DNA of 54,701 nt from a virus, in the IMG/VR virus record IMGVR_UViG_3300045988_148989. One strand, given 5' to 3'. Both the position numbers and the translations under genes were made by a program. Positions 1,539-51,915 of this stretch are shown one piece after another (the stretch's first letter is position 1; the number at the start of each line of letters is the position of its first letter). Below the pieces are notes generated by a model, which was not told the origin of the DNA, did no database searches, and was given only the letters and a program-made list of their open reading frames with translations.

Positions 1539-1552
1539 TTTACTATTTGAAT
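1539..1552 (+). promoter_or_regulatory. Dispersed motif copy 1 (tttactatttgaat).
   Basis: Exact core ACTATTTGAA, about 35 bp upstream (minus sense) of the small ORF start. On the minus strand TTCAAA-N17-TAAAAT is present. Confidence 0.5.
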
Positions 1553-1553
1553 A

Positions 1554-1868
1554 CTAAAAATCAAATATACTCATTTGCTTCATTTTTGTTTGTGATTTTT
1601 CAATATCATTTGATTTATTTAAATCATTTACATATAGCGCTATAAGTTCATCATACTTATTAAGCCAAATAGTATCGTATAATTTATTGTTTATTGTGTA
1701 TATAAAGCCCTTGTGTTCTTCTATAAAATCTAATGTTTCATAAAATGCACATGTTCCATATGATTTTATCATCATATATTTAGCGTTCTTTTGAGATTTC
1801 TTAACATATCTATCCGCTAATTCAACCTCTATTATTCTATTAGGATCGCTTATTGATATGGCTATCAT
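1554..1868 (-). CDS. Hypothetical protein.
   Basis: 104-aa ORF in the minus-strand operon. Confidence 0.5.
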   Translation of the reverse strand: MIAISISDPNRIIEVELADRYVKKSQKNAKYMMIKSYGTCAFYETLDFIEEHKGFIYTINNKLYDTIWLNKYDELIALYVNDLNKSNDIEKSQTKMKQMSIFDF

Positions 1869-2164
1869 GATTTAGAATACTCCTTATATTCTTCTTCTGC
1901 TTTCTTTCTCCTTTTGGTTGTTTCTGTTGGTTTTAATTCGGGGTGCGTTTCAAAAATCTTTCTTCTTGCTCGTGTTACTGAACCAAATGAAGGAAAGCCA
2001 TATTTCTTATGATTTAACATCACCTCACTAAATCTATCAATTGTTGCAACATTAAAGTTAATTTCTCTATATACTGCATAAACCAATACAAAATCATCAC
2101 TTCTTGTTTGTTCATATTTTTGTAAGACTTTTAAAACAATATCTTCTGTTCTTTCTAGTTCCAT
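1865..2164 (-). CDS. Hypothetical protein with a basic C-terminus.
   Basis: 99-aa ORF whose start overlaps the neighbouring stop. Confidence 0.5.
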   Translation of the reverse strand: MELERTEDIVLKVLQKYEQTRSDDFVLVYAVYREINFNVATIDRFSEVMLNHKKYGFPSFGSVTRARRKIFETHPELKPTETTKRRKKAEEEYKEYSKS

Positions 2165-2180
2165 ATATGTATATTCCTTT

Positions 2181-3548
2181 CTAATAGTCTAATTGTTTCA
2201 ACAATTGTATAAGTTCTTCTTTATCTTTTTTGTATTCCTCAATGCTCTTGCCTGTCAAATCTTTATATTTGTTTGAAGTTTGTTCTGCTAAATCTGTCTG
2301 ACCGCATTTAACTTGTACATCATAGATTTTGATAAGTTCATTTGTTGAAAATTCGGGTTTACTTTCATCTTCGTTTTTTTCTTTATCAAGCCATTTTGGA
2401 GTTGGTTCTTTTCTAACATTGTTAGGTTTTGGCTTATCCTGTTCTCTTGATAACCAATTGTTTATAAATCGTTTAATACCTCTTTTAGTTTTTCTTTTTG
2501 TAGGATTTGCATTTAACCACCCTTTCATCTTCCTTAATTCTTGCATGATATCAACATTGGGATATAATTCTTCATATTCATTAAAATCATTTTGAGTAAC
2601 ATCATATAAAGTTTTATCATTCAAAGTTAATTGAATAATTGATGGTTCAATACGATTTTCTAAATCGTTTTGAACAATAATATCTTTTTCTTTATTCTTT
2701 TCTTTATTCTCTATATCTCTATACTCTATACTCTTATCTCTATACTCTTGTGTTACATCACCTATTACATTATTGTTACGGTGTAACGTTTCGTTACTAT
2801 CAATGTAATAATCAATCGAGTTTAATATATCTTCATCTATCTTTTTTCCTGCGTGAATATTACTATGACAACCCCTACATAAGGTTATCATTTTATTAGT
2901 TTCATTATTTTGTGGCTTATTTTCATCATACCCATCTATATGATGAACACATAAGTTTTCTATGCTTCCACATATTGCACATTTATATTTATCTCTTTGG
3001 ATAACAACATAATAATTTCCGTTGTATCTTTTGTTATTAATATAATCTTCAATATATGGAATGTGTTGTTTTTGCTCACAATTCTTTTTTGCTCTATGTT
3101 GTTTTTGTCTAATAGCATTGCTTTTTGGTGCTTTCTTTACTTCTTGAACATTGTTATTTTCTAATAATTCTTGTTTCTTTCTCCACTCCCTAATTCTCTT
3201 TGCTCCCGATGTTTCACTGCCTACCATTTCACTAAAGTTAGCGATTGTTAAGCATGAATTTTTATCTTCATAGATTAACCCTAGTTTCTTATACAACTCT
3301 AGCGCTACAACAACAGTGTCATAATCAAAATACTTTGTATCTCTTACAATCTTATCAATGTCATAAGGTACGATCATTTCACCTATTCTTTTTTCTAAAG
3401 TGCCGTTTGTGTTTGCAGTATTTAAACATAACATCTGATACAACACCACATATTCACAACCATTCTTTTGAGATAATAGAAAATCAATTTCATCTAAACT
3501 AAAGAAATTAGTTTTCAATTTTATCCAATAAAATCTCTTTTCGCTCAT
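2181..3548 (-). CDS. Phage replisome organizer / replication initiation protein with an in-frame HNH endonuclease insertion.
   Basis: The N-terminus MSEKRFYWIKLKTNFF is typical of Phage_rep_org_N. The central HNH motif is CAICGS...CVHHIDG...N...LCRGCHSNIH. Confidence 0.6.
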   Translation of the reverse strand: MSEKRFYWIKLKTNFFSLDEIDFLLSQKNGCEYVVLYQMLCLNTANTNGTLEKRIGEMIVPYDIDKIVRDTKYFDYDTVVVALELYKKLGLIYEDKNSCLTIANFSEMVGSETSGAKRIREWRKKQELLENNNVQEVKKAPKSNAIRQKQHRAKKNCEQKQHIPYIEDYINNKRYNGNYYVVIQRDKYKCAICGSIENLCVHHIDGYDENKPQNNETNKMITLCRGCHSNIHAGKKIDEDILNSIDYYIDSNETLHRNNNVIGDVTQEYRDKSIEYRDIENKEKNKEKDIIVQNDLENRIEPSIIQLTLNDKTLYDVTQNDFNEYEELYPNVDIMQELRKMKGWLNANPTKRKTKRGIKRFINNWLSREQDKPKPNNVRKEPTPKWLDKEKNEDESKPEFSTNELIKIYDVQVKCGQTDLAEQTSNKYKDLTGKSIEEYKKDKEELIQLLKQLDY

Positions 3549-3761
3549 TTATTTCTCCTTTTCATTGTTTGAAACGTATTCTTTAATTGCTTCATCAACG
3601 ATAAACCATAGTAATTTACCACTTTTACGTTTTTCCTTGTCAATTAATTCTTTGGTGCTTTCTTTGATTCTAATGACTGAATATCCTTCCATTTTTTCAC
3701 CTTCTTTTCTATATTTTTCTACTTTAATTATAGTACAATATTATTCTTATTCAAGAATATA

Positions 3762-3775
3762 TTTACTATTTGAAG
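3762..3775 (+). promoter_or_regulatory. Dispersed motif copy 2 (tttactatttgaag).
   Basis: Core ACTATTTGAA, immediately downstream of the rusA stop. Confidence 0.5.
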
Positions 3776-3777
3776 CA

Positions 3778-4140
3778 TTAATAAATTAATGATACTTCTA
3801 TTCTTGGATTGCTCTTGTCTATGTAAACATGATGCTCAATTTCATTTATGTATTTTTGGCTATCATCTTGTAGGATTTCTGTTTTAACAATGCCATCTAG
3901 AATAAACTTTGTGGCAAACGTGATATTGTCTATGTCTCTTCTTCTATTCTTCTCATACCAATCAATCTTTATTTTGATAGGGTGTTTATCAACTTTCTTG
4001 ATTTTAAAGTGTCTAATATAATAAATAACAATAGATTCATTATCTTTCTTCATCTTAGCACCTGCATAAGGGTTTCTTCTATTCTTATTTGTATACTCAT
4101 TCAAGCCACTTAATCTACCATCTATAATAAACCTTTGCAT
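3778..4140 (-). CDS. rusA: RusA-like Holliday junction resolvase.
   Basis: 120 aa carrying the RusA catalytic motif RRDIDNI. Confidence 0.65.
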   Translation of the reverse strand: MQRFIIDGRLSGLNEYTNKNRRNPYAGAKMKKDNESIVIYYIRHFKIKKVDKHPIKIKIDWYEKNRRRDIDNITFATKFILDGIVKTEILQDDSQKYINEIEHHVYIDKSNPRIEVSLIY

Positions 4141-4249
4141 AACATCACTTCTTTCTATGCTTTTTTCTTGAATAAAAAGAGTTTTTTATATTCATGATGA
4201 AATACTCATGTTTATATAAAAACCTCTTAAAATCGAAAATATGAGCGAT

Positions 4250-5040: not shown

Positions 5041-5233
5041 ATATATCCGTCCTTACTATTTTTAAATTTTCGTATTTTCTAGGAGTTATTTTTTTCTTGT
5101 ATCTTTTATATAAGCCGTATACGCTTATTGGTTTAATTCCTAGATAATTACCTATAATATATGCATTTCCTTCTGCTTTTAATTCATCATCAATATATAA
5201 AGCGTAAGTTATCATGTTCTTTTTAATACTCAT
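5027..5233 (-). CDS. Hypothetical small protein.
   Basis: 68-aa ORF with overlapping start and stop. Confidence 0.4.
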   Translation of the reverse strand: MSIKKNMITYALYIDDELKAEGNAYIIGNYLGIKPISVYGLYKRYKKKITPRKYENLKIVRTDIFEDE

Positions 5234-5735
5234 ATATATTACTCTCCATCTTAATATCTAACTCACTGCACCAACTCAAAAGCACGTCTATTAGTTTATT
5301 GCATTCTTCAACATTGAATTTACTTGAGCCTTCAAAGCACTTATAAACAATCATCTTCTTACCTTTGTATATTTCGGGTCTTACAACCTTAACGGCTCTA
5401 AATGATTTTTTTAATTCGTTTTCAATGGTTTCTAATCCCATGACATACTCATATTTAGCGTTTGCTTGTTCCAATGCTGATATATATATATCCATATCAT
5501 CTTGTTGTAATTCTTGTGCTATCTCATGGATAATAGCCCACATATAAGCGTTTTGGTTCAATGAGCGCTTAGACTTTGGTCTTTTGATTTCTAAGGAATA
5601 AAGTCCTTCTTTAAGTTCATCAACTTTCTTCTTATCATAGAAATGTTGAAATGAGAAAGTTATCTCAACATTTCCCATTTCATCATATTCTTTTCTTATG
5701 TAATTACCATTAACTTTTATCATATGTTTCAACAA
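5223..5735 (-). CDS. NinB/Orf-family recombination mediator-like protein.
   Basis: RSLNQNAYMWAIIHEIA parallels lambda NinB RSLDQNRKLWACLGDV. Confidence 0.5.
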   Translation of the reverse strand: MLKHMIKVNGNYIRKEYDEMGNVEITFSFQHFYDKKKVDELKEGLYSLEIKRPKSKRSLNQNAYMWAIIHEIAQELQQDDMDIYISALEQANAKYEYVMGLETIENELKKSFRAVKVVRPEIYKGKKMIVYKCFEGSSKFNVEECNKLIDVLLSWCSELDIKMESNIYEY

Positions 5736-5934
5736 CCCTTAAAAAAATAACAAATAATATAATGCTTGTTGTTCTGCTATATGCAAGATTCAACAAACCA
5801 CTAGCATATTTATAAACCATGTTGATGATGGAATATTCTATGTAATAACAAGTGAACATGAATATTCCAATTACAACATGAAAGATTATTAATTTTAGTA
5901 TATTTTTCATTGAATAATTAACTTTTTGAAGCAT
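5710..5934 (-). CDS. Small predicted membrane protein.
   Basis: 74 aa with two hydrophobic segments (LIIFHVVIGIFMF, IILFVIFLRVV). Confidence 0.35.
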   Translation of the reverse strand: MLQKVNYSMKNILKLIIFHVVIGIFMFTCYYIEYSIINMVYKYASGLLNLAYSRTTSIILFVIFLRVVETYDKS

Positions 5935-9008: not shown

Positions 9009-9021
9009 CTACTATTTGAAG
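9009..9021 (+). promoter_or_regulatory. Dispersed motif copy 3 (ctactatttgaag), 22 bp upstream of cro.
   Basis: Core ACTATTTGAA. Confidence 0.5.
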
Positions 9022-9269: not shown

Positions 9270-9282
9270 CTACTATTTGAAG
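9270..9282 (+). promoter_or_regulatory. Dispersed motif copy 4 (ctactatttgaag) in the cI-cro intergenic region.
   Basis: Core ACTATTTGAA. The extended match tCTACTATTTGAAGC is shared with copy 3. Confidence 0.5.
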
Positions 9283-9365
9283 CAATTTCTAACTTCTTAA
9301 GACAATATTATTTTACAATAATTTTAAATGTTTGTAAATAATTAAATTAACCAATAGTATAATAA

Positions 9366-9379
9366 TTTTACTATTTGAA
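9366..9379 (+). promoter_or_regulatory. Dispersed motif copy 5 (tttactatttgaat). It overlaps a plus-strand TTTACT-N17-TATATT candidate cI promoter.
   Basis: Core ACTATTTGAA. Confidence 0.5.
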
Positions 9380-9385
9380 TACACT

Positions 9386-9793
9386 ATGCTATATTTAAGT
9401 TATAAAATAAAAAAGGAGTGCTATTTGTTGAAGATTCAAAAAAGTATTAATACAAAGGATATAGGAGCGAAGATAAAACATTTAAGAAAAATGCGATCAA
9501 TGACACAAGATGAATTAGGTGTTGTCTTAGGTGGCTTGTCTAGAGGGCAAATATCTAATCTAGAGACAGGAAGAAGAAATTTAAACATTCATCAGATTAA
9601 GACTCTTGCAGATTATTTTAATGTATCCTTAGAAACATTAGGACTTGTTACAAATGAGATTGAAACCGTTGATTTATTGGAACGTGCAAGAATGATATTT
9701 GAGAATGAGGTCATACCACTAGAAGAAAAACAAGAACTGTATGAAAGTGTGATGAAACTGTATCTTGAAGCAAAAGAACAAGCAAAAAAATGA
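9386..9793 (+). CDS. cI: cI-like XRE-family repressor. The probable true start is TTG at about 9424, after an AAAGGAG RBS.
   Basis: HTH (MTQDELGVVLGGLSRGQISNLETG) and a C-terminal dimerization-like helix. Plus strand, opposite to cro. Confidence 0.7.
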   Translation: MLYLSYKIKKECYLLKIQKSINTKDIGAKIKHLRKMRSMTQDELGVVLGGLSRGQISNLETGRRNLNIHQIKTLADYFNVSLETLGLVTNEIETVDLLERARMIFENEVIPLEEKQELYESVMKLYLEAKEQAKK

Positions 9794-9812: not shown

Positions 9813-10019
9813 TCATAACCATATGTTTTTCTTATCTTTTTTTAATTTCTTGATTTCATCTTTTGAATAAAATAATGCTTCATCTTTGAATATTTTGTTA
9901 CAAGTATCATATAGATTTTTTAGGTTCTCTTTTGTTTGTATTGATGGGTTTATGAAGTTTATTGTTGTATTGCCTATCTGCACTTTTACCACCTCAAAGA
10001 TATGTATGTTGTGTATCAA
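9813..10019 (-). CDS. Hypothetical small protein between cI and int (possible RDF or regulator).
   Basis: 68-aa minus-strand ORF with a copy of the dispersed motif just upstream. Confidence 0.3.
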   Translation of the reverse strand: MIHNIHIFEVVKVQIGNTTINFINPSIQTKENLKNLYDTCNKIFKDEALFYSKDEIKKLKKDKKNIWL

Positions 10020-10052: not shown

Positions 10053-10065
10053 TAACTATTTGAAT
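10053..10065 (+). promoter_or_regulatory. Dispersed motif copy 6 (taactatttgaat) between gene 9813..10019 and int.
   Basis: Core ACTATTTGAA. Confidence 0.45.
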
Positions 10066-15528: not shown

Positions 15529-17139
15529 TTACAATGTGATAGTTCCTATATTTGTAACCGTATTATCTACGTCTACAGGCTGATTTACAAAGTTACCCAT
15601 AAGCAACTGTTTTCCACTTGCTTTAATGCTTGTACCACTATTTATATTAATTTCGTTATATAGTACCTTTTTGCAAGAATAGCAGCCATAACATGTACCT
15701 GTTGCATTCTCGATATTAAATTTACTATTTGAAACACTCTGACAAGCATAAGCACCATATAATGTACCATAAGCACCATTTATATATACATTGATATTTT
15801 CATGGTTGCCACCATATAAACTATATATAGTTTGTGAACTACTTTGTACTGCTTTTATATTAGCGTTCTTGATAGTCACATTATCTGTACAACTCATTAT
15901 TGCTAGTGTTGTATCAGTTAAAGTTATGTTTGGTATAGTCGCTCTTGAAAAGTCAACTATTACTCTTCTTTTTGATGTTGTATCACTATTAAAATCAAAT
16001 ACATGATTGTCAATAGAAGAAGCAATACCTAATGTTCCATTGACTGAAATATACAACTGCGAATTATCTTGAGCACTTGCATAATTTCCAACCCCATTCA
16101 AGAAGTTTTTGACCATTGTTGATAATGTTTTATTGTCATTATCTCCCGTTGCTTCATATACATATTCACCAATAGCATTTACTTCTTCTTCTAACTTATC
16201 AACTCTTGTAACAGTGCTTTCTGCAATTGTTCCCTCAACACATTTTTTGTTTACAAACTCTATTCTTGTACCGATTCTATCCAATTCATTTGTAAATATA
16301 ACTTGTGTTCCTTGAGCGTTTATACTAAATTCATCTTTTGCTAGTACAAAGCCATTTACACGAATTTCTAATACATCAAGAGAATTGTTTACAAAGTTGA
16401 TTGTGCTAGGTATCGTGAAAGTCTTTTCACCTTGTGCAACTGTTGCGTATATTGCTTTATATTCTCTATAAAGGTTTGCTGATTTAACAGTATCCTTGAT
16501 AGTATCGAACCATATATCAAAGTCACTTTTCTGTGTTGTCTCCCAATTTGTGAAACTCTTGCTTGTCTCATTGATAAATGTATCTTGAGCATCTTTATAT
16601 TGATTGAATAATGTTGTTGTATCAAACTGCTCAATTAGTCCGACAATCCAACCACAAACATCATTATTTGATCGTGTATCTTCAATCATTGAATTTGTGA
16701 TTGATGTTGTATTCTTGTTCACAATGATATTTGCTAAACATATCTCGTATGTTGTTTCATCTCTTGTTAATGATGGTGGTGTAGGTGTTGAGGATAACTC
16801 ACCTTCCAACAATTTAACGTGTGTTAAACGTGTGCTATTGTCTCTTGAGATTACAATTCTATCAATCCTATTCAAGATTACATCACTTGAAGGAATATCA
16901 ATTGTATAATCCTTATCAATCTCAAACCAATTATTTCCTACCTTGCCTCTACCCGATTTAACAATAACCTTCATTCCTGTACTTTCAACAATCTGACAGG
17001 CATCTGAAACCGTTGCAAATATTCCATTATCGGAAATCAAGCCTTTGAAATAGTCATTAACCTGTTCTGCCGTATATGTTCTATCAGGTTCATTATCAAC
17101 CATAATTGCATTGAAAAATCCACTATTTAATTCAATCAT
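15529..17139 (-). CDS. Receptor-binding / tail fibre protein with a pectate-lyase-like beta-helix.
   Basis: 536 aa. The C-terminal portion shows beta-helix repeats (NIKAVQSS...NINVYINGAYGT...CYGCYSC). Confidence 0.55.
   Translation of the reverse strand: MIELNSGFFNAIMVDNEPDRTYTAEQVNDYFKGLISDNGIFATVSDACQIVESTGMKVIVKSGRGKVGNNWFEIDKDYTIDIPSSDVILNRIDRIVISRDNSTRLTHVKLLEGELSSTPTPPSLTRDETTYEICLANIIVNKNTTSITNSMIEDTRSNNDVCGWIVGLIEQFDTTTLFNQYKDAQDTFINETSKSFTNWETTQKSDFDIWFDTIKDTVKSANLYREYKAIYATVAQGEKTFTIPSTINFVNNSLDVLEIRVNGFVLAKDEFSINAQGTQVIFTNELDRIGTRIEFVNKKCVEGTIAESTVTRVDKLEEEVNAIGEYVYEATGDNDNKTLSTMVKNFLNGVGNYASAQDNSQLYISVNGTLGIASSIDNHVFDFNSDTTSKRRVIVDFSRATIPNITLTDTTLAIMSCTDNVTIKNANIKAVQSSSQTIYSLYGGNHENINVYINGAYGTLYGAYACQSVSNSKFNIENATGTCYGCYSCKKVLYNEININSGTSIKASGKQLLMGNFVNQPVDVDNTVTNIGTITL
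15721..15734 (+). promoter_or_regulatory. Dispersed motif copy 7 (tttactatttgaaa) inside the RBP gene 3' region, about 200 bp upstream of the holin.
   Basis: Core ACTATTTGAA. Confidence 0.45.
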
Positions 17140-19070: not shown

Positions 19071-22000
19071 GACTTAACCCCTCCTTTTAATAAGTTTCTG
19101 CTCTGTCTGTAAATGTCTAATGTGCTTAATGTCTTAGGTGATGTTATGTATTGGTTGAATGTGTTGTTGACTGTTTTACTATTTGAAACATTATTTACAT
19201 TTGAAGCCCCATTAATAACTCCTAAGCCTTTTTTGACATCTTGTAATTCTTCATTAACAATCTTTCTGATTGTATTAACAGGTGAAATGATTTCGTCCTG
19301 TGTAGGGTTATCACCAACCATAGCCAAGAACGGATTATTCTTTTTAGCAAGTCCACCTTGAGCAAGTCTTGGTAAATTGAATGTGTTTAATCTCTTCAAA
19401 TTAATTCCTGGAACATCGTTTATTTTTCCAATCAAACTATTGATAGCATTGATAGGAGAGTTTAAAACACTTTCTGCTGTTTTCAATACTGCATTGATAG
19501 CACTCTTAAATGCTCCCCCAACTGCCTGTCCTACTTTCTGCCCTATATTTGTAAATACTGATTTAATAGTGTTCCATATTCCACTAAAGAAACTGCCAAC
19601 CCCACTGAAAGCGCTCTTGACTGCATTCCATGCACTTTGGAAAGCACTGCCAAACCAACTGCTTACAGTGTTGAATACACCTTGGATACCACTCCATACA
19701 CCACTAAAGAATGATACAACACCATTCCATGCTCCTTGTATTCCTTTAACCGCTCCATTGAAAGCACTTGTAAACCATGAAGCGACAACATTATAAACGC
19801 TGACTATTCCGTTCCATATTTTTGTAAAGTAACCCACAACACCATTCCACACGCTTTGTATTCCATCATAGGCACTTTCAAATATACCCGTAAGATAATC
19901 AATAACAGGAGTGAATATCTCAACTATCTTTGACCAAACAAATTGAAATATTATAACCATATTATCGAACGTTATTTTTATGTTGCTGAATATAGTGCCA
20001 AATATGCTACTGAACAACTTAATAGCAGGTGAGAATACTGTAACAATGCTTGTATAAACATTTGTGAATATCGCAACTAATCCATTCCAAATTCCTTCAA
20101 TCGTTGAAACAATTGAACTGAATAAATCACTAAAGAATGAACCTATAGAAGAAAATACACCCATGACACCACTTAATAAGGTGCTGAAAAAATCAACTAA
20201 CCCACTCCACACGCTTGTTATTAAATCCCAAGCACCACTAAAGAATGAAGTGATCCCATCAATTGCTGTTTTACACGCTCCTACTATCGTATCCCATACA
20301 CCTATCCAAAACTTTCTGAATCCTTCTACATTGTTCCACAAGTAAATGAATGCAACAACTAGCCCTGCTATTGCACTAGCAATTAATACAAATGGGTTTA
20401 ATGCCATTGTGGCACTCAATAATGCAAATGCTTTTTGAACACCACTTATAAGTCCTTGAATTGCTAACGCTCCTGCTAGTACTCCAAAAGCCGTTGCAAC
20501 TCCTGCTACAATTGGGGCTATAACAGTCATGTTGTTAATGACAAACTTCAACAAATCGGTCAAGATAGGTTCTAATGTGTTTACGATAGGTTGAATTAGA
20601 TTGACCTCAAGTGTTTTACCTAATTCTGTCCATTGGCTTGCTAAGTTATCGTACTTAACATCATCAACTTTCTTCATAGTTCCCTCAACATTACTGTATG
20701 TATCATTCACATCATTCAATGAAGAAATAACCTTCATTGCATTATCTTCACCCAATGCACTCCATGTATCACTTGCAACTGTCAATAATTCTTGCTTATC
20801 TCCTGCCGTTGCTAAATCATTAATGATTGATTTAAATACATCTGCTTGTGTTGCTTTTCCATCTTTCCATGATTTAAATAAATCCTGTGTCTTAGTTGAG
20901 AAGTTATCCATCTGATCCTCAAAACGTCCATCAACCATAGAAATACCGATTTCCTTAACTAAGTCATTCACCTTATCAAGGTTATACGCTCCACTGTCAA
21001 CACCGTTTTGTAAGATAGTAAACATTTCTTCTGCACTAAATCCTGCTTGTCCCCATAACTGTGAGTATTCGGCAATGTTATCGCCTAATTCATCAGACTT
21101 ATTCAAACCGTTTTGAGCGCCTTTAGCGATTAGGTCAAAGGCTTCATCAGCACTTACCCCCATGTTTTCCATTAACCCTTGCACACCTCTAAGCGTTTCA
21201 TTGAAATCCATTCCAAATGTATCTTGCAAAACAATAAGATTCTTTGTCATGTTCTTGATTTCTTCTGAACCTAAATCCATATTAGAAGTTTGTTGTTTTA
21301 CTAGTGAAATCTTTTGTGCTAAATCTTCCCAACTTTCACCATAGTTGTTTTTATAAAGGTCATCCATCACATCTTTAAAATCTTTCATTTCGCCATTGGT
21401 TGAGCCTGTTGATGCTTGTAATTGGTCTAGTGCCTTTCCTCCTTCTGTCGCTAAATCCTTGAAGGCTTGTATGGCTTCTTGAATAACCTTACTCGCTAAA
21501 TCTGCAACGACATCTTTTAATACTGTATAACCATCACTAGAATTTTCTGCTTCTTTTCCTGTCTCTTCTAATGATCCACCTAATTTATTTGCACTGCCTT
21601 TTAAGTCGTTCATGGTTTCCTTGTTCTTGTCAAGGTCTCCATTTAAACTAGTAATCTTTGATGCAAGGCTTTGTGCTTCGTTTGATGTTTCACCAAATTC
21701 AAGACAAGCGTTCATGTAAGCAGTCTTTAATTCCTTAATCTCTTTTTCTTGATCGTTTATTGTATCTTCAAGTTTTTCAAGAGATGTTCTTGTATCAATG
21801 CTTTCTTTTTCAACATCATTCAAAGCATTTTCATAATTTCTTAATTCTTTCTTTGTCTTATTGATAGAAGCCTGTTGATTCAATATTGTTATATTAAGAT
21901 TTTCAGATGCTTTTTTATTTCTTTCCTGTTCCTTAACAGTTTGATTCAATTCTTTTTGAAGGTCATCAAGATTACCTTTTAGCGCTTTTGATGCTTCGGA

Positions 22001-23024: not shown

Positions 23025-23038
23025 TTTACTATTTGAAT
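23025..23038 (+). promoter_or_regulatory. Dispersed motif copy 9 (tttactatttgaat) between the major tail protein and chaperone genes.
   Basis: Core ACTATTTGAA. Confidence 0.5.
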
Positions 23039-27358: not shown

Positions 27359-28606
27359 TTATTCACTATTTGAAACACTATCATCTTGATTATTCTGTTC
27401 ACCAACTTGATATTTTGAAGCATCTTTCGTTTTGATGTAGTTCAATGACATAAAGCGTTCGTCTCCACCTTCATAAGGTTGTTCACCAAACCATCCCAAT
27501 ACTTGGTTATTGGTTACACCGCCTGTTGGTAATAGAAGTTCTGCAAGTTTTAGTTTCTTGTCTGCGCTCATCATCTGTATTTCACTTGTATAACAGATAA
27601 TGCTGTTTCCGTTCTTTCTTGCAAATGGTGTTAACATTACTCTTTCAATAGCCTGTCCTAAACTGATAGCACCACTTTCAATAACTGTTTCATAGAATGC
27701 TTCTTTATCTTCACTTGTATATTTACCGTTTAATATTTCTTCACTAACTCCATAATGTCTTCTAATCTTATCATCAAAGAATTTCAATAAATCCTTGCTT
27801 ACAGTTCTACCATAGAAAGGAATAGGATTGTATTCAGTTCCTTGGTCTAAGATAACAAAGCCACTCTTATCGTCATTTAGTTTCTTTTCAAACTCTTGTC
27901 TTTCTTTTTCAAGTTTATCTTTACCAATCAAGCCCGACACTTTAAATATGCCTGTTACTTTTAATGAGCCTTCTATTGATTTGAATGTTGCTTGAATCAT
28001 TTTATCATTAGTTTCTAGGTGTCTAAGAAGTGTTGTATTGTTCGCACTTCCATTTTTATCCCCACCCATATATTCATTCTCACCGTATTCTTTTCTCCAA
28101 TGAATGATTTCATCGTATCTTAATTTTCCACTATGTTTCCCATTCTTAAAAGTGAAGTCAACATATATGATACCTAAATCATCTTCAAAGAAATCAACTC
28201 TAACAGGATTTAAAGGATATAAGGCTTTATATACCTTCTTTGTTCTGCCGTTTGTAGGATTGTAATAAAGATCGTATGTAGGATAAATAAAACAGTTCTT
28301 ATAAGTCTCTCTTAACCATGCGCATTTTCTCAAGAAATCGCTTTGTGTCATTAGATTGTTTGGGTTCTGTAGAATCTCATTGATGTTATTGTCTGTTACT
28401 TTTACTTCCTTACCATTCACAATTCTTATATGTCTAGGCTTCAATTTAGAATATTCATCTAGGATTCTATTTGTGATTGTAAAGACAGTTTCATCATTCA
28501 TTATGTTATCTCCAAATTGAGAGAATGATGGTGTTCCGCTCGTACTACTTGCCCACATAAAAGATTTATTTATTGCTTGTTTTGCTAACTTATCAATCAA
28601 TCCCAC
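27359..28606 (-). CDS. Portal protein.
   Basis: 415 aa, immediately downstream of terL with a start/stop overlap. Confidence 0.75.
   Translation of the reverse strand: MGLIDKLAKQAINKSFMWASSTSGTPSFSQFGDNIMNDETVFTITNRILDEYSKLKPRHIRIVNGKEVKVTDNNINEILQNPNNLMTQSDFLRKCAWLRETYKNCFIYPTYDLYYNPTNGRTKKVYKALYPLNPVRVDFFEDDLGIIYVDFTFKNGKHSGKLRYDEIIHWRKEYGENEYMGGDKNGSANNTTLLRHLETNDKMIQATFKSIEGSLKVTGIFKVSGLIGKDKLEKERQEFEKKLNDDKSGFVILDQGTEYNPIPFYGRTVSKDLLKFFDDKIRRHYGVSEEILNGKYTSEDKEAFYETVIESGAISLGQAIERVMLTPFARKNGNSIICYTSEIQMMSADKKLKLAELLLPTGGVTNNQVLGWFGEQPYEGGDERFMSLNYIKTKDASKYQVGEQNNQDDSVSNSE
27362..27375 (+). promoter_or_regulatory. Dispersed motif copy 10 (ttcactatttgaaa), overlapping the portal stop codon.
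   Basis: Core ACTATTTGAA. Confidence 0.45.
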
Positions 28607-31885: not shown

Positions 31886-31898
31886 CCACTATTTGAAT
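31886..31898 (+). promoter_or_regulatory. Dispersed motif copy 11 (ccactatttgaat) upstream of the RBP-like gene 30992..31729.
   Basis: Core ACTATTTGAA. Confidence 0.5.
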
Positions 31899-31899
31899 A

Positions 31900-32595
31900 C
31901 TAAGGTTGATACTTCTTAGCATAATCATTTATATACTTTGTCCACTCTTCTATGTCTCTGCCTTGTGGATTTTCATATAGTCTTTTTAGACATTCTTCTT
32001 TAGGAGTATCAATATGAATAACTTCATCTACTCCCAATTTATCAATGATTCTTTTTCTTTCCATCACATAAGGACATGTAGTAATAACCCATGCATTAAA
32101 CCATGAACCTCTTCTAGTTTTGATTATTTCATATATAGCACGTTTGATATCAAATACAGGTTCTTTCAATCTATTAGGCTTGATGTATCTTTCATTCAAG
32201 GAAATCATCTGCCATATTGAATCTATATCACATACTATATCATCTACTCTTTTATTTTCTCTTACAAATGTTGTCTTTCCACTACATGAATTTCCGTGTA
32301 CTAGTATAACTTTGCTTTGATAGTATCCAAACCTTTCATGTATCTCGTTATGTGACTTATGAGACACAATCATAATGTTATCGGGATTTAATGAAATGTT
32401 AGGATCATTCACGTTTGTTAGATTCAATTCTATCTTGTGATGAAAGACCATGTCATATTTTCTATAAATCGGGTTTCCTGTGTACTCGTCAATAATATCA
32501 CCGTTCTCATTTATTCGTTGTGATATTATGTATTTCTTTAAGTCGCTCCATTCCTTGCTAGAATAGAATTGATTTAAGTTTGTAAAGTATCTCAT
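31900..32595 (-). CDS. HNH endonuclease domain fused to a P-loop NTPase/kinase-like domain.
   Basis: The N-terminus carries HH...N...N...HKSHNEIH. The C-terminus carries the Walker A motif GNSCSGKTT. Confidence 0.55.
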   Translation of the reverse strand: MRYFTNLNQFYSSKEWSDLKKYIISQRINENGDIIDEYTGNPIYRKYDMVFHHKIELNLTNVNDPNISLNPDNIMIVSHKSHNEIHERFGYYQSKVILVHGNSCSGKTTFVRENKRVDDIVCDIDSIWQMISLNERYIKPNRLKEPVFDIKRAIYEIIKTRRGSWFNAWVITTCPYVMERKRIIDKLGVDEVIHIDTPKEECLKRLYENPQGRDIEEWTKYINDYAKKYQP

Positions 32596-36098: not shown

Positions 36099-36425
36099 TT
36101 ATAAATTAGTAGCCTTATTTACAATAAAATGGACTTTACAACCTTTTTCAATTGCTTTAGTCAATATAATGTTTGTGTTGTTTTTATTTGTGTATTCTGT
36201 GTTGTCTAATCTCATACCGTTTATATAGACTTCAAGGATATCTGCACCATACCTATATTGAGAAATATTAATAGGAATAGTGCTTACATCTCCTGTTGCA
36301 GTATAAGTTGATTTATATTGAACTAACTTGAGCGCATAATCATGCGTATGATTTTTTAATGCAAATGTATTTTTTAATACACTCCACAAATGTGTTAATC
36401 CCGAATCATCAAGGTATTTTGACAT
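36099..36425 (-). CDS. Short tail fibre-like protein, N-terminal paralog of 36436..37743.
   Basis: MSKYLDDSGLTHLWSVLKNTF versus MSKYLDENGLTYLWSKIKGTF. Confidence 0.4.
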   Translation of the reverse strand: MSKYLDDSGLTHLWSVLKNTFALKNHTHDYALKLVQYKSTYTATGDVSTIPINISQYRYGADILEVYINGMRLDNTEYTNKNNTNIILTKAIEKGCKVHFIVNKATNL

Positions 36426-36435: not shown

Positions 36436-37743
36436 CTACTTACAAATGGTATCAATATCATCATTTGATAACGAATTGATAACAAATAATCCTCCTAATG
36501 CATCCCATGCTTCTCCTGTCCATGCAACGTTTGTTCCTGCTGGTCCGTATTCACTTGCATCTGTTAAATTATACGTATCACCTACAATCTGATTTGCTGT
36601 TGGCAATGAAGCACTTGTGATAGAACCTTTGTATTTATATAAACCTGCTAAATCTGTTTTCAATGCATAGGAACTTGCAGATAGAAAGCCGTCTAACTTC
36701 TTTTTATCTGTTGAAGACATCAACCCATTTACTGTTTGTGTTGCTGTTGAATACGTTGTGTTTGTGCTTGGGATTCCTAAAGCGGTAATATCTGATTTTG
36801 ATACGGCTGTAGTTGCACTTACATGTCCTGTAGAATCAACAGTAATATTATACAATCCACTAGTTTTAGAAGCGTATGTAGGGTGTACATATTTATTCGC
36901 TCCTGTCGCAATTCCATCTAATTTTACTTTATCGCTTGCGATCATCAACCCATCTGTTGTAGTTGTTACAGGGTTATATTTTGTATCGTTTGGAGTAGCC
37001 CACGTTCCATTTCCACATAAGAATTTCCATTGCTGACTTGTCTGTGGTGCAGGAACTAGTCCACTTGTTCCGCTTGTATCTGCTGTTGCTCCTGTCATGA
37101 CTGAATATGTTGTATCCTGTGAAGGAATCCCTAAAGCGGTAATATCGCTTTTTGAAACGTTTGCAGTACTTGAAACGTGCCCTGTTCCGTCAATAGTGAT
37201 TTTATAAAGCCCACTTGTTTTGGCGGTATATGCTGGGTGCACATATTTATTTGCACCTGTTTCAATGCCATTTAATTTTGTTTTATCACTTGAAGACATC
37301 AAACCATTTGATGTAGTTGTTGCTAGGTTATATTTTGTATCGTTTGGAGTGCTCCATGTGCCATCTGCACATAAGAACTTACTTTGGTCACCTTTTGAAG
37401 GCTTTGGAACTAGTCCATGTGTTCCGTCTGCTGTTGCCGTTGCTCCTGTCATGTCTGAATATGTTGTATCTTGTGATGGAATCCCTAAAGCAGTGATATC
37501 ACTCTTAGAAACATTTGTAGTACTTGAAACATGACCTTTTTCGTCAACAGTGATTTTATAAAGACCATTTGTTTTTGAAGTATAACTTGGGTGCGTGTAA
37601 TTGCTTAACCCTGCTAGTTTGTTCTTTTCTGCTGTTGTGTAATCGTTTGTACTCAGACCTTTACCACTTTGCTGTGCTACAAACGTTCCTTTTATCTTAC
37701 TCCATAAATAAGTTAAACCATTTTCATCTAAATATTTTGACAT
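36436..37743 (-). CDS. Tail fibre protein with about 118-aa tandem repeats.
   Basis: 435 aa. The unit ...KLNGIETGANKYVHP.YT.KTSGLYKIT.D.TGHVSST.NVSKSDITALGIPSQDTTYS is repeated about three times. Confidence 0.6.
   Translation of the reverse strand: MSKYLDENGLTYLWSKIKGTFVAQQSGKGLSTNDYTTAEKNKLAGLSNYTHPSYTSKTNGLYKITVDEKGHVSSTTNVSKSDITALGIPSQDTTYSDMTGATATADGTHGLVPKPSKGDQSKFLCADGTWSTPNDTKYNLATTTSNGLMSSSDKTKLNGIETGANKYVHPAYTAKTSGLYKITIDGTGHVSSTANVSKSDITALGIPSQDTTYSVMTGATADTSGTSGLVPAPQTSQQWKFLCGNGTWATPNDTKYNPVTTTTDGLMIASDKVKLDGIATGANKYVHPTYASKTSGLYNITVDSTGHVSATTAVSKSDITALGIPSTNTTYSTATQTVNGLMSSTDKKKLDGFLSASSYALKTDLAGLYKYKGSITSASLPTANQIVGDTYNLTDASEYGPAGTNVAWTGEAWDALGGLFVINSLSNDDIDTICK
36620..37660. 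repeat. About 354-bp tandem repeat (around 2.9 copies) inside the tail fibre gene.
   Basis: The anchor ggaatccctaaagcggtaatatc recurs at 36771, 37124 and 37478 with high identity. Confidence 0.75.
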
Positions 37744-39410: not shown

Positions 39411-39878
39411 TTAAATATTCCAATCTTTATCATCTGCAAGTTTCTTCTTTAACTCTAATTCTGCTTGCTTTAGTTCATAACTATCCCAATCATTTTTCCA
39501 ATTATCCTTATCATAGTTCTTGAGTAATAAATGTAATGCTCCTGTATCTCCGTCAACTTCTTTTGTTGTTATTTCAGTATGCTTTCTAGTAGAACCATTT
39601 TCATCTTGAGTAACATATGTTTTCTTGGTTTCTAGAGTATGTTTAAATGCTTTCTTTATCATTTCACTTCTTAAATCTAAAACTAAACTTGATCGCCCTT
39701 TTTTTAAGGCTTCTTTTAATTCCATTTTTTCCTTATGAACATTGAAAGCACTAACTGAAATTCCTAACGCTTCACATATCTGTTTTTCAGTAGCACCACT
39801 TTTAACCCATTCTTCTATTTTATTTATATTTGGAAATATGACAGTGTCATAAACGCTTTTTCTTCCTCTTTTAGACAT
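39411..39878 (-). CDS. HTH DNA-binding protein, small-terminase-subunit-like (or a late regulator).
   Basis: 155 aa. The N-terminal HTH TEKQICEALGISVSAFNVHKEK and its architecture resemble Terminase_2-type TerS. It is separated from terL by about 9 kb. Confidence 0.4.
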   Translation of the reverse strand: MSKRGRKSVYDTVIFPNINKIEEWVKSGATEKQICEALGISVSAFNVHKEKMELKEALKKGRSSLVLDLRSEMIKKAFKHTLETKKTYVTQDENGSTRKHTEITTKEVDGDTGALHLLLKNYDKDNWKNDWDSYELKQAELELKKKLADDKDWNI

Positions 39879-39948
39879 TCAACATCATACTTTCACATCT
39901 CCTTTTTTATTCATATTTACATCATTATTTTATCATATTTCACTATTT

Positions 39949-39962
39949 GAATACATATATAA
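39949..39962 (+). promoter_or_regulatory. Dispersed motif copy 12 (ttcactatttgaat), about 70 bp upstream of the TerS-like gene.
   Basis: Core ACTATTTGAA. Confidence 0.5.
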
Positions 39963-40175
39963 TTCAATTTTTTAACAATTAAAAAAGACAGTGAATATTT
40001 CACTGCCCTTTTTAGGAAAAACGTTTATACGCTTCTCAATTTGGGAAAAAAGTGTTTTGTTTGTCTCGTACCAAATCTAAGAACACTAATAACGATGGTA
40101 CACCTAGAAGGTTCTGCCCCTCCGTTTATCCCTTATAAGGAGACCACTCTACTATTGAGTTATAGGTGTATACGG

Positions 40176-40249
40176 TGTTGAATTGAGGATTCGAACCCCT
40201 GTCCTCTAGTCTCCACGACTAGATATTCTACCTTTGAACCATATCCAAC
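40176..40249 (-). tRNA. tRNA-like gene with a non-canonical anticodon arm (anticodon possibly UGG/Pro if the loop is 7 nt).
   Basis: The reverse complement reads GTTGGAT...GGGGTTCGAATCCTC AATTCAAC A. It has a 7-bp acceptor stem, a perfect GTTCGAATC T-loop and GG in the D-loop. The anticodon hairpin TCTAGTC-GTGGA-GACTAGA has a 7-bp stem and a 5-nt loop. Confidence 0.5.
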
Positions 40250-46742: not shown

Positions 46743-46756
46743 TTTACTATTTGAAG
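46743..46756 (+). promoter_or_regulatory. Dispersed motif copy 13 (tttactatttgaag) abutting the RBS of a 56-aa ORF (about 46563..46730).
   Basis: Core ACTATTTGAA. Confidence 0.5.
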
Positions 46757-46764
46757 CGTTATGT

Positions 46765-49006: not shown

Positions 49007-49015
49007 TATTTTTTA

Positions 49016-49525: not shown

Positions 49526-49527
49526 TT

Positions 49528-50061
49528 TTATTTTTCCTTCCTTTTTAACCTTGCACATCTCTTGTATCTCTTATCCAAAAAATAATAATTATTCAAAATC
49601 TCTATTTCATCATTTATAGATTTTAATTTATGGACAGACCTTTTACTTTCTATCCTTCCTTCTAATATGATGTATTCTACATCACATTCATATAATGCTT
49701 TTTCTATATCATGTATTAAACTATCTCCACCACAATCATATATTTCGGGTATTACTCTTCTGAAAACAACAATATCAATTTTATTCTTAATTAATATATC
49801 TCTAAATTGAGATAATGTATTTTCATTGATTTTCATATTTACTATATTTTGATATATAGACCTATCACAATAATATTTGCTTGATTCAATACCTATAACA
49901 TTGAATTGCTTTGATAGCCTATGTGATAGTAATCCATAGCAACAACAAATATCTAAAATGTTTGATCCTATTGTGTTGCTAGTCAAATAGAATATATCAT
50001 TATGTATTTTTGGATATATCCCATATTTGAATTGTTTTAAATATTTATCATCATCAAACAT
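49528..50061 (-). CDS. Hypothetical protein with a degenerate class-I SAM-methyltransferase-like Rossmann motif.
   Basis: 177 aa. ILDICCCYGLL resembles motif I (hhDhGxGxG with G to C changes). VIGIESS resembles post-I and IDIVVF resembles motif II. Confidence 0.3.
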   Translation of the reverse strand: MFDDDKYLKQFKYGIYPKIHNDIFYLTSNTIGSNILDICCCYGLLSHRLSKQFNVIGIESSKYYCDRSIYQNIVNMKINENTLSQFRDILIKNKIDIVVFRRVIPEIYDCGGDSLIHDIEKALYECDVEYIILEGRIESKRSVHKLKSINDEIEILNNYYFLDKRYKRCARLKRKEK

Positions 50062-51333
50062 TTATAAAATTTTGCTATACCTTTCTACTGCTCTTTTTCT
50101 CTTTGTCAATTCGCTCTTCGTTTGAGCAAATCCCATATATTTACAATAATAATCATTTTTAATAATACAAATACACATTCTTTTATATGTAGGTAACTCT
50201 TTGAAATTCTTGCAATCTGTATCATCTAAATATTCATCAAATGCAACAACTTCTTTTGTTGTATGTGGTTTTATTCTTCCTTTTCTTTCACAAGGAATAT
50301 TATTGTTTTCCAAATACTCTAATGTATCATCACTAACAACACATCCTTTTTCTCTCCATACCTTAATTGAAGTATTTAACTTATCTAAATAATGTTGTCT
50401 TGTGTTTTCATCAAGGGTATCAAGCAAGAAATAACAATACTCTTTCCAAGTGAAATGTTTTGGCTTGGTAATTGATTTCCACCCCATTGCAGTAGTTCCA
50501 CCATACAATCCTGCAAAGTTTACACCATTAACTCTACCTATCATTTTCCCCCAATTGTTAGGATCAATAACTTTGTATAGTTTTAATGAATGTATCCCAC
50601 AATCATTAAAAGGACTTGCAACTCTCATTTGGTCAACGTTTAATCCTGCATTATAGAATAAGTCATACAATTTGTTATATGGCTTCTCAAATTTACAGTT
50701 ATAAATCCAAACATCATCTACATTCCAATCATAAATAATGTATGCTTTATCCTCGTTTATCCATTTGAGACTTTTGTATTTTCTTACTTTATCACTTGCG
50801 ATTGCTCTAAAACGGTTTAAACTTTCATCCGTTCTTATCCCAACCACATTTACAGTGTTTGGATGCTTCTTTTTAAACCATTCAAAGAAGCCTTTAGGAA
50901 TTTCAAAATCATCTTTTTTTATTTCGAATTCACAATTGTCTTCATTGATTACATAATCATATGTAGGCATTTCACGAACCCAAATATCTTTTTTTGATTT
51001 TTCCCAAGGAATCCAATACCCCTTATCCATTCTACATGCACATTGTGCGTATATTGGTAAACACAACCAATATCTTTCAATGTCATTGAAACGCTTAAAC
51101 GTTTCATCAACATAATCCGTTGTCATTTGGTATTGTGCTTCATAGTCCATATGAACCATTGCTAATTTATGAAGCATGTTATGCTTCTTTGCATAGTCAT
51201 AGCACATTTCCAAGCACACACCACTGTCCTTACCACCACTAAACGAAACAAGAACAGTGTCAAATTCATTAAATATGTACTCAATACGCTCTTGCGTTGC
51301 TTCGTACACATTTTTATCTATGTACTTTTTCAT
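50062..51333 (-). CDS. IbrA-like PAPS-reductase-family (PP-loop, DUF3440-like) protein, copy 1 (start trimmed to MKKYIDKNVY after AAAGGAG).
   Basis: VLVSFSGGKDSGV PP-loop. Paralogous to 46765..47973 over the full length. Confidence 0.7.
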   Translation of the reverse strand: MKKYIDKNVYEATQERIEYIFNEFDTVLVSFSGGKDSGVCLEMCYDYAKKHNMLHKLAMVHMDYEAQYQMTTDYVDETFKRFNDIERYWLCLPIYAQCACRMDKGYWIPWEKSKKDIWVREMPTYDYVINEDNCEFEIKKDDFEIPKGFFEWFKKKHPNTVNVVGIRTDESLNRFRAIASDKVRKYKSLKWINEDKAYIIYDWNVDDVWIYNCKFEKPYNKLYDLFYNAGLNVDQMRVASPFNDCGIHSLKLYKVIDPNNWGKMIGRVNGVNFAGLYGGTTAMGWKSITKPKHFTWKEYCYFLLDTLDENTRQHYLDKLNTSIKVWREKGCVVSDDTLEYLENNNIPCERKGRIKPHTTKEVVAFDEYLDDTDCKNFKELPTYKRMCICIIKNDYYCKYMGFAQTKSELTKRKRAVERYSKIL

Positions 51334-51520
51334 ATATTCTCCTTTCAATACAAATAAGAAACGGACTAAATAAGCCCATTTCTTATTTTTTAGTAGATTA
51401 CTTAAATAATCTACTATAAGCATAGCGATAACTACGCTTTTGAAGTGGATGCTTCACAATGAAGTACCACCAACCAATTCTCTTTTTTCTTTTCATTTGT
51501 GTATCCTCCTTACAACCACT

Positions 51521-51549
51521 ATTATATATGTATTACTTATAAATGTCAA
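51521..51549 (-). promoter_or_regulatory. Promoter of the conserved family: TTGACA-N17-TATAAT with an imperfect palindrome in the spacer.
   Basis: Minus-strand reading, upstream of a 33-aa basic leader peptide ORF and IbrA-like copy 1. Confidence 0.6.
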
Positions 51550-51553
51550 TATT

Positions 51554-51877
51554 TTACATTACCTTTTTTACATCTTTCCACAATGGGTTTAATGTCCCTT
51601 TGTAGTTTAGATACATGTTTTCTTGAAAAGCGCTATATCCTGTTAATACATGAATTTGTTCATTACCTAAGAATTCACCGTCTTGGCTATAATACTCGCC
51701 ATATTTGGTTTTTCCTTCTTCATAATGGCAACATTCAAACTCACCACGATCAAGCGCTTCTAACGCTTGATTTTTTAATTCTTCAATTTCTTTTTGGGTT
51801 GCTTCTCTATAATCAACCTCTCTTTCTAAAAATATATCTCCATTATCAGCAATCCAAACTTTCTTTAATTTCAACAT
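51554..51877 (-). CDS. Hypothetical protein.
   Basis: 107 aa. Confidence 0.45.
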   Translation of the reverse strand: MLKLKKVWIADNGDIFLEREVDYREATQKEIEELKNQALEALDRGEFECCHYEEGKTKYGEYYSQDGEFLGNEQIHVLTGYSAFQENMYLNYKGTLNPLWKDVKKVM

Positions 51878-51901
51878 CTTCTTTTCTCCTTTTCCTTTAT
51901 G

Positions 51902-51915
51902 TTTACTATTTGAAG
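51902..51915 (+). promoter_or_regulatory. Dispersed motif copy 14 (tttactatttgaag), about 28 bp upstream of gene 51554..51877.
   Basis: Core ACTATTTGAA. Confidence 0.5.

Follow-up and report, generated by a model that had tools for sequence, protein, structure and literature searches.

A ten-base sequence repeated in a single orientation across a gut phage genome as a candidate dispersed operator of its cI-type repressor

Why a phage should carry the same short sequence at many of its gene boundaries, always pointing the same way, is the question raised by the viral DNA held as IMG/VR record IMGVR_UViG_3300045988_148989 (54,701 nucleotides; hereafter the window, i.e. the whole stretch that was analysed). 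The element is a 10-base core, ACTATTTGAA, read as TTCAAATAGT on the opposite strand, for which a preliminary description had offered three explanations, namely a site for a phage DNA-binding protein, a −35-like promoter element or an RNA element acting in 5′ untranslated regions (UTRs). In the following, it will be argued, with a probability of about 0.55, that the motif is the asymmetric operator of the 121-residue XRE/cI-type repressor of the phage, multiplied genome-wide like the stoperators of phage L5. The observations behind this reading are the statistics of the sequence, the conservation of its positions, its co-inheritance with the cI gene, the rule that governs its orientation and the geometries of the promoters found near it; from them we infer that cI binds the motif and thereby blocks the initiation or the elongation of transcription.

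The window contains 14 copies of ACTATTTGAA, all of them on the plus strand and none on the minus strand, as had been counted before, whereas 100 dinucleotide-preserving shuffles average 0.58 copies and never exceed 3; the guanine-plus-cytosine (GC) content, previously put at about 28%, is 30.5%. The core starts are collected in table 1: most of those first listed were 2–4 nt too low, from the inclusion of flanking T's, and 39949 was an error for 39942. Variants of the core with one mismatch number 24 on both strands, with about 14 expected, and, this enrichment being mild, the motif family is unusually sharp. Nearly all genes are on the minus strand and, therefore, the minus-strand reading TTCAAATAGT is the one in transcription sense; in that sense 68 non-redundant contexts, from the window and its relatives, give the extended consensus A-A-(T/C)-G/T-C/A/T-TTCAAATAGT-(A/G)-(A/G)-A, i.e. 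a 10-bp invariant core with biased flanks, which has no dyad symmetry and lacks a Shine–Dalgarno (SD) core. The variant at 5921–5930 is probably a 15th member, because it has the consensus flank aatgc and lies just after the stop codon of the SSB gene; the same variant is also used in the immunity region of one type of relatives (the L084 type, see below).

The copies are found in the early, lysogeny, packaging, head, tail and lysis regions. Eleven of the 14 are fully intergenic in a genome of which 8% is intergenic (binomial P = 2.5e-10), and the other three, at 27365 (3 nt 5′ of the portal stop codon) and, at gene 3′ ends, at 15724 and 19178, are read in a common frame as V-S-N-S. That copies tend to lie upstream of gene starts, as first noticed, is correct, but the tighter relation is with the stop codon of the preceding gene. 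Thus, in 87 non-redundant contexts, 78 of which have an identifiable upstream open reading frame (ORF) end, the stop codon is within 12 nt 5′ of the motif in 40/78 and within 5 nt in 24/78, the usual place of the motif being 2–12 nt past it; the distance to the next start varies from 12 to more than 200 nt, and in long intergenic regions the motif is at the upstream edge. The spacing is suggestively even, with intervals of 2.2–8.1 kb and a coefficient of variation of 0.32, as compared with 0.885 for random placement (P = 0.00035), when the four immunity-region copies are merged into one, which was a post-hoc choice. A literature search by motif sequence returned primer coincidences only, and an Rfam scan of the window gave nothing at the motif, two tRNA genes being its sole matches.

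In the control region between the cI-like and cro-like genes, the motif (copies 9011, 9272 and 9370) is the sole repeat family found. Since the cI promoter is predicted at 9367–9395, copy 9370 overlaps its −35; this position is kept in all cI-family lineages examined, often with one mismatch. The predicted early promoter, on the cro side, is flanked by copies 9370 and 9272 and overlapped by none. An imperfect palindrome, TTTACAATAATTT / AAATGTTTGTAAA, spans this promoter from −10 to −35 (9312–9338) and could be either a second, classical operator (e.g. for Cro) or a mere by-product of the promoter hexamers; next to copy 9370 there is also a partial inverted half (AATAGTA / TACTATT).

The cI-like protein itself has the Pfam domains HTH_3, HTH_19 and HTH_31, HTH standing for helix-turn-helix, and its best sequence matches in the Protein Data Bank (PDB), all weak, are of the XRE family (the regulator 9sf2, PezA, C.BclI, C.AhdI and Stl); the repressor of phage TipsytheTRex gave no match in this search. 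An AlphaFold2 model (40 homologs, pLDDT 81) predicts a five-helix XRE domain at residues 9–64, a flexible linker and a two-helix hairpin at 83–120, for which the top Foldseek matches are C.BclI, C.AhdI, BldD and P22 c2, the cluster A mycobacteriophage repressor not being among them. The recognition helix, LSRGQ[VI]SNLETG[KR]RN, is invariant in 40/40 homologs that are 69–89% identical to the cI of the window, and the recognition helices of Cro, as judged from translations, vary among the lineages.

Relatives were collected by cI protein searches and motif-pattern searches in IMG/VR and ENA, which gave many gut-phage contigs, and lineages were compared within ±10 kb around cI. The cI family numbers roughly 540 proteins, among them a type of 127 aa with a 6-aa insertion. 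At least eight lineages of related phages have retained the motif with its orientation unchanged, so that the positional conservation that the preliminary description had proposed to look for is indeed present. Where cI is 99–71% identical, the exact 10-mer occurs in 3–13 copies per 16–27 kb, nearly all on one strand per locus, and orthologous copies persist where the surrounding DNA is only 65–80% identical, as in the tail-fibre-like gene of the related locus L078, which keeps the place of copy 15724 at a nucleotide identity of 65%. In the L084-type phages, the integrase-side copy is on the plus strand, upstream of an integrase gene that is also on the plus strand; because the copy flips with the gene, orientation follows transcription and not the chromosome. 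Antisense exceptions amount to about 3 in about 105 contexts beyond the immunity region.

The most instructive comparison for the identity of the binder is with phages that are otherwise unrelated to the window. Four loci (L082, L083, L275 and L276, the L082 type), with a GC content of 36–41%, have in common with the window only cI (69–70%), int (40%) and cro (35–38%). Scattered copies were not found in these loci, which have the three sites of table 1 at the homologous places of the immunity region. Between these and the window stand lineages with 3–6 copies per 16–20 kb (L279, L280 and the L084 type), and the highest copy numbers are those of L277, L278, L078 and the window itself. The site at the cI promoter usually has one mismatch (ACTATTaGAA, ACTtTTTGAA, AtTATTTGAA, gCTATTTGAA or ACTATTTGAt) and the scattered sites are exact, for which reason the whole would look like a graded operator series. 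That the motif is the operator of cI is argued, then, from the retention of the three immunity-region sites by phages that share with the window only the cI/cro/int module, from the invariance of the recognition helix in the cI family and from the match between the pattern of the motif and the published description of stoperators (PMC9283540, PMC6550527).

The L082-type loci also contain 4–8 same-strand copies each of another sequence, CCATTTTGAA, read as TTCAAAATGG in gene sense. It was considered as a variant of the scattered motif and rejected as not homologous, several copies being SD-spacer-ATG arrangements on the other strand, with the start codon inside TTCAAAATGG; rather than a repressor site, this suggests that a certain spacer sequence is preferred ahead of start codons.

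How a bound repressor might act depends on what lies next to each site, and a search for σA-like promoters over 132 motif contexts found the strong promoter-like sites clustered at two offsets from the motif. At the first, in about 10 of the 132 contexts, TTCAAA of the motif is itself the −35, with a −10 at 16–18 nt; an example is copy 1542, with its own TTCAAA and TAAAAT 17 nt downstream. At copy 10055, TTCAAA-17-TAAAGT is directed at the small ORF 9813–9983. At the second, in 13 contexts of which at least six are independent, the −35 starts 19–22 nt after the start of the motif, as at copy 3765 (TTGAAT-16-TATAAT, which begins 10 nt past the motif and precedes the replisome-organizer gene) and copy 27365 (an extended −10 promoter, TTAAAA-17-TGaTATAAT, beginning 12 nt after it). 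The other copies have no promoter nearby and are directly before an SD or inside a gene end; many are 12–17 nt from a start codon, which leaves no room for a promoter.

On the cI-operator reading, the ancestral set would be the three immunity-module sites. The one on the −35 of the cI promoter would allow for autoregulation of cI, the one between the early lytic promoter and cro, in sense orientation, would stop early transcription before cro, and the one before the small ORF beside the integrase gene would control that ORF. In the window and in several related lineages, the operator would then have been multiplied to 14–15 copies at gene boundaries, every 2–8 kb and in a single direction relative to transcription. 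In the lysogen, the repressor would occupy all sites: on a −35, or about 10 bp upstream of one, it would shut the adjacent promoter, and at sites with no promoter, before an SD or at a gene 3′ end, it would hold up elongating RNA polymerase as a directional roadblock. As the outcome, each 2–8 kb segment of the prophage would be kept silent, in the manner known from the L5 stoperators, and superinfection immunity would be reinforced.

Several points weigh against this reading. The tie between cI and the motif is one of co-inheritance alone and, most comparison loci having been fetched via cI, their co-occurrence is partly by construction. XRE repressors usually bind palindromes as dimers, and the AlphaFold model of cI, in which no second DNA-reading domain is seen, would leave the reading of an asymmetric 10–16 bp site by a single HTH unexplained. 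In the window, no copy lies on the core of the early promoter, where the palindrome could be the classical operator, and in the L084 type ACTtTTTGAA is found at the two immunity-region sites but ACTATTTGAA at the scattered ones. Furthermore, several of the scattered sites precede a −35 by about 10 bp; there, a roadblock would not stop the promoter and some other mechanism of repression would be needed. Finally, the binder may be a host factor.

This last point leads to the alternative that survives best, although it is unlikely, i.e. that the motif is the site of some other DNA-binding protein (Cro, a ParB-domain/IbrB-like protein, a small phage protein or a host regulator), the immunity-region copies being a part of its regulon. 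Candidates are available, as the phage encodes three ParB_N-domain proteins and the cro-like HTH protein and about half of the ORFs of the window have no annotation; in addition, the lineages were compared only over ±10 kb around cI, and the real cI operator could be the early-promoter palindrome. However, a positive link of any kind is lacking for such a binder, and the three immunity-region sites are kept where Cro is only 35–38% identical. The sites known for ParB-like proteins (parS and the KorB OB sites) are palindromes of about 13–16 bp that co-occur with the ParB protein, whereas the motif is asymmetric and is retained in loci that share no ParB gene, none having been found in the L082-type loci. 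A factor from one particular host is argued against because the motif travels with cI through phages of 26–41% GC. Thus, of the pair of binders first suggested, cI gains, since the motif accompanies its gene into otherwise unrelated phages and its recognition helix is invariant, whereas neither Cro nor the ParB-domain proteins do.

Distinctly unlikely is that the motif marks the starts of transcription units as a promoter element for the host polymerase or a phage-modified one, be it a −35 (TTCAAA), an UP-like element or a compact phage-specific core. The two recurrent promoter offsets are what this explanation would lead one to expect, as are the terminator hairpins that several copies follow and the even spacing of 2–8 kb, which suits transcription units. 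It fails, however, at the many copies 12–17 nt from an ATG with only an SD in between, where neither a −10 nor a transcription start fits, and in most contexts a correctly spaced −10 is absent; invariance over 10 bases plus flanks exceeds the need of a −35 or UP element, and the L082-type phages have sites in the immunity region only. No σ factor, RNA polymerase, antiterminator or late activator was found in the approximately 40 proteins scanned with Pfam or PHROG. The −35-like element of the preliminary description is, therefore, retained for a minority of sites.

A third explanation takes its cue from the mosaicism of these phages. Among the relatives, one and the same upstream flank may pass, precisely at the motif, into different downstream genes, and the converse is found too; such junctions are seen at copies in L073 (1313), L076 (1357), L078 (3050), L079 (2596), L080 (2436) and others. 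In L271, an N6/N4 DNA-methylase gene (5206–5898) is enclosed, within 5192–5924, by inverted motif copies (5192 sense, 5915 antisense), the antisense one of which belongs to the about three exceptions mentioned above; the arrangement may be the trace of an insertion or inversion at the motif. The motif might then be a recombination linker or cassette boundary for gene exchange, through the Erf/exonuclease/RusA system or a site-specific enzyme, and the phage does have genes for an exonuclease, Erf, SSB, NinB and RusA, while several blocks of homology end at a copy. As a primary function this is very unlikely and was rejected, since only 5 of the 78 clusters of homology breakpoints in the window come to within 20 nt of a copy. 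The majority of junctions fall at gene boundaries that lack the motif, any conserved gene-boundary island would give the enrichment seen over random positions, and the three fixed immunity-region sites, which are in non-mosaic contexts, would be left unexplained. Short repeated gene-boundary elements that coincide with mosaic junctions are known from T4-type phages as the mobile regulatory PeSL (promoter-early stem-loop) cassettes, which consist of a stem-loop and an early promoter; the motif of the window has neither a conserved stem-loop nor a conserved promoter, and junctions are not specifically enriched at it.

Hardly to be expected is an action in RNA, as UUCAAAUAGUAAA in the downstream leader, whether as a processing site, a translational enhancer or a site targeted by a protein or small RNA. 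Almost every copy has the mRNA sense and many are 2–10 nt 5′ of an SD, but the most widely conserved one (9370 and its homologs) is upstream of the early promoter and antisense to cI, and so is not in a sense transcript; in long intergenic regions, the copy adjoins the upstream stop codon, upstream of the promoter and outside the leader of the downstream gene; and the flanks are unrelated, hence with no conserved structure, the Rfam matches in the window being confined to the two tRNA genes. The 5′ UTR element of the preliminary description is, accordingly, improbable. A nick site, a Chi-like site, a DNA-uptake sequence and a modification target, which were considered for the strand bias, were set aside for lack of positive support, all of them leaving the placement at gene boundaries and the immunity triplet unexplained.

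If the cI-operator reading is retained, the closest known parallel is provided by the Cluster A stoperators, which are asymmetric 13-mers; more than 20 of them occur, both at promoters and where the space between genes is short, their orientation is tied to transcription and its reversal abolishes repression (PMC9283540, PMC6550527, PMC1934351). The resemblance to these systems (L5 gp71, Bxb1, TipsytheTRex) extends to the short asymmetric sites, their many copies in early and late regions, at promoters and in short intergenic spaces, the orientation correlated with transcription, the copy upstream of the gene of the repressor itself and the variation of site number and sequence among relatives. 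The differences are, however, substantial. The Cluster A repressor is a monomer with an N-terminal HTH and a C-terminal Stoperator domain, whereas the 121-residue XRE/cI protein of the window is unrelated to it and does not have that architecture; there are from more than 20 to about 30 sites in Cluster A, as 13-mers with variants, and 14–15 here, with 10 invariant bases; the hosts are actinobacterial in the one case and presumably of the low-GC gut Firmicute type in the other; some sister lineages of the window keep three immunity-region sites only; and binding and the elongation block are, for the window, predictions. As the repressor here has no Stoperator domain beside its HTH, the system would be stoperator-like in its working but outside that family. 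In the searchable literature the term ‘stoperator’ is applied almost only to actinobacteriophages, besides its use as a comparison for unexplained repeats of phages T1, Stevie and TLS, and the arrangement of repressor sites at gene boundaries over the whole genome is so far described only in phages of mycobacteria and their relatives.

Other systems share single traits with the motif. The C1 operators of P1 are dispersed round the genome at several promoters and, to our knowledge, are promoter-associated and have not been reported as uniformly oriented roadblocks at gene ends; those of the Bacillus phage phi105 are clustered near the immunity region. In both phages, and in P7, a lysogeny repressor acts at multiple non-palindromic operators, as in the present proposal (PMC1934351), although the repressors belong to families different from that of the cI of the window. 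The operators of the lambda-type cI/Cro pair are palindromic half-sites for a dimer, whereas the motif is not palindromic. The lambda-type sites overlap the divergent cI-cro promoters; copies of the motif in that region are on the −35 of the cI promoter and, counted from the early promoter, at +22..+31 and −76..−67, with none on the core of the latter. The start-associated sequences (SAS) of Cluster K, whose function is unproven, are likewise asymmetric repeats, about 13 bp long, that share one orientation, are placed at gene starts and are conserved before unrelated genes; they include the SD core, lie at 3–7 bp from the start codon and occur only in the non-structural half of the genome, whereas the motif is without an SD, keeps a distance of 12 to more than 200 nt from the start, adjoins the upstream stop codon and is also present in structural genes and in the immunity region. 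The 22-bp repeats of phage T1 and Citrobacter phage Stevie are also asymmetric, mostly intergenic and oriented one way, in 16–20 copies, and were likened to stoperators by their authors, but these phages are virulent and without a repressor, and the repeat sequences are unrelated to the motif.

As to the genome that carries these sites, nt 1–119 of the window are identical to 54583–54701 (an assembler overlap with k = 119) and its capsid protein is also found on human gut metagenome contigs of 53.4–54.7 kb, from which the window is concluded to be the complete circular genome (about 54,582 bp) of a temperate siphophage; the early operon crosses the contig ends. The only plus-strand genes are those of the cI-like repressor and of the serine recombinase. 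The early operon, in minus sense, comprises the cro-like HTH, exonuclease, Erf, SSB, NinB, RusA and replisome-organizer genes and, having wrapped round the contig end, a helicase and two IbrA-like/ParB-like gene pairs; later minus-strand genes are those of TerS-like, TerL, portal, protease, capsid, tail, holin and lysis proteins. The closest cultured relatives are the Butyrivibrio viruses Arian and Bo-Finn (TerL 50% identical); megablast of a 12-kb query gave no nucleotide-level match among cultured phages, and in Arian (cI 35%) both the motif and dispersed repeats of any kind are absent. In searches for the host, the integrase had no match among genome contigs, and a 17-mer scan returned almost only chance matches in unrelated taxa, the exception being a 40-kb contig of a metagenome-assembled genome labelled ‘Clostridia bacterium’, with at least six copies. 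One relative, the L084 type (L269–L274, also the P0096 type), is a phage of about 51 kb whose cI is indexed in 191 assembly-collection blocks; the places shown come from several studies, on contigs of 50–53 kb and never with bacterial flanks, and it seems to be a widespread gut phage.

Other features of the window may be recorded beside the sites that they adjoin. Directly after copy 23028, the segment 23010–23110 has a partial repeat of the motif (AAATAGT AAATAGA) and then a long hairpin, AAATAGATGG ... CCATCTATTT with a T-run behind it, downstream of the 210-aa gene. The two adjacent tRNA genes assigned by Rfam (40099–40169 and 40177–40248) are just upstream of the terminator that precedes copy 39942; in the same place (40099–40249) ARAGORN finds only one, a tRNA-Pro(UGG) at 40174–40249. 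The TerS-like gene (39411–39878, PHROG 309) is about 9 kb from TerL (28606–30354), and the interval contains an SGNH-like gene, an amidase, a 231-aa gene with weak AAA/kinase-like Pfam matches and two paralogous fibre-like proteins (36099–36425 and 36436–37743) with the common N-terminus MSKYLD..GLT.LW; a similar layout is found in Arian. Within the replisome-organizer gene (2181–3548), PHROG matches mark an HNH-endonuclease-like segment at residues ~148–270, which suggests an inserted homing-endonuclease domain. Between 46765 and 51423 there are, in two tandem sets, IbrA-like proteins of 402 and 453 aa (PAPS_reduct plus DUF3440), paired with ParB_N-domain proteins of 212 and 180 aa, and a small methyltransferase (49528–50061); a ParB_N–DNA methylase fusion is encoded at 27–1322. 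These genes may form a DNA-modification or anti-defence cluster, and no link between the IbrA-like/ParB_N cluster and the motif was found.

Table 1. Motif sites and elements of the immunity region in the window, with the immunity-region sites of the L082-type phages (copies are placed on the strand that reads TTCAAATAGT).
Feature	Coordinates	Strand	Sequence	Context
Copy	1542..1551	−		2 nt past the stop of 1554–1868; 36 nt before the start of 1332–1505
Copy	3765..3774	−		3 nt past the stop of the RusA-like gene; upstream of the replisome-organizer gene
Probable 15th, weaker copy	5921..5930	−	TTCAAAAAGT (+ strand ACTtTTTGAA)	One mismatch; 3 nt past the SSB stop
Copy	9011..9020	−		Between a terminator-like hairpin (after a 44-aa ORF) and the cro-like SD; cro-like ATG 24 nt on
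Copy	9272..9281	−		About +22..+31 of the early (cro-side) promoter, sense orientation
Copy	9370..9379	−		Overlaps the predicted cI promoter at its −35 (TTTACT, 9367–9372, +); −76..−67 relative to the early promoter
Copy	10055..10064	−		Between the serine-integrase gene (+) and the small − ORF 9813–9983
Copy, in-gene (V-S-N-S)	15724..15733	−		192 nt before the stop of a 536-aa tail/receptor-binding-protein-like gene; upstream of the holin gene
Copy, in-gene	19178..19187	−		108 nt before the end of the tape-measure gene; upstream of Dit
Copy	23028..23037	−		9 nt past the stop of a 210-aa gene (major-tail-protein position); then hairpin and tail chaperone genes
Copy	27365..27374	−		Ends 3 nt before the portal stop codon
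Copy	31888..31897	−		2 nt past the stop of a 231-aa gene (31900–32595); upstream of a fibre-repeat gene and TerL
Copy	39942..39951	−		Follows the tRNA gene pair and a terminator; TerS-like gene 63 nt on
Copy	46746..46755	−		9 nt past the second IbrA-like stop; next ATG 16 nt on
Copy	51905..51914	−		Abuts the hairpin at the end of 51924–52217; next ATG 27 nt on
cro-like HTH gene, 75 aa	8759..8986	−		First long gene of the early leftward operon
Predicted early (cro-side) promoter	9310..9338	−	TTTACA-17-TAAAAT	Promoter scan
Predicted cI promoter	9367..9395	+	TTTACT-17-TATATT, TG extension	−35 within the extended motif
cI-like repressor gene, 121 aa	9428..9793	+	TTG start	XRE-type HTH and C-terminal two-helix hairpin; proposed motif binder
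Serine recombinase (integrase) gene, 621 aa	10084–11949	+		
L082-type site 1			ACTATTTGAc	Before the cro SD
L082-type site 2			gCTATTTGAA	On the −35 of the cI promoter
L082-type site 3			Exact copy	Between the small ORF and int

A wider proposal, which is put forward tentatively and on which we would not quite offer even odds, is that stoperator-like roadblocks arose a second time, independently, in abundant human-gut phages of low-GC Firmicutes, with a minimal 121-residue XRE/cI repressor that would read an asymmetric site; the sister lineages would then represent stages of the spread from three operators to about 15 sites, and the scattered operators would serve also as portable gene-boundary sequences for the swapping of modules. 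For practical purposes, the motif could give synthetic biology in Firmicutes a compact transcription stop that depends on orientation and, these phages being common, as the P0096 type indicates, provide gut virome studies with a marker of immunity groups. Should the repressor indeed bind the sites, how a single-HTH XRE protein reads an asymmetric site of 10–16 bp becomes a structural question, and the natural series that leads from three local operators to about 15 genome-wide sites could show how a regulon spreads. Most of all, dispersed and oriented silencing of the prophage would then not be peculiar to the actinobacteriophages, but would have evolved again with an unrelated and much smaller repressor.

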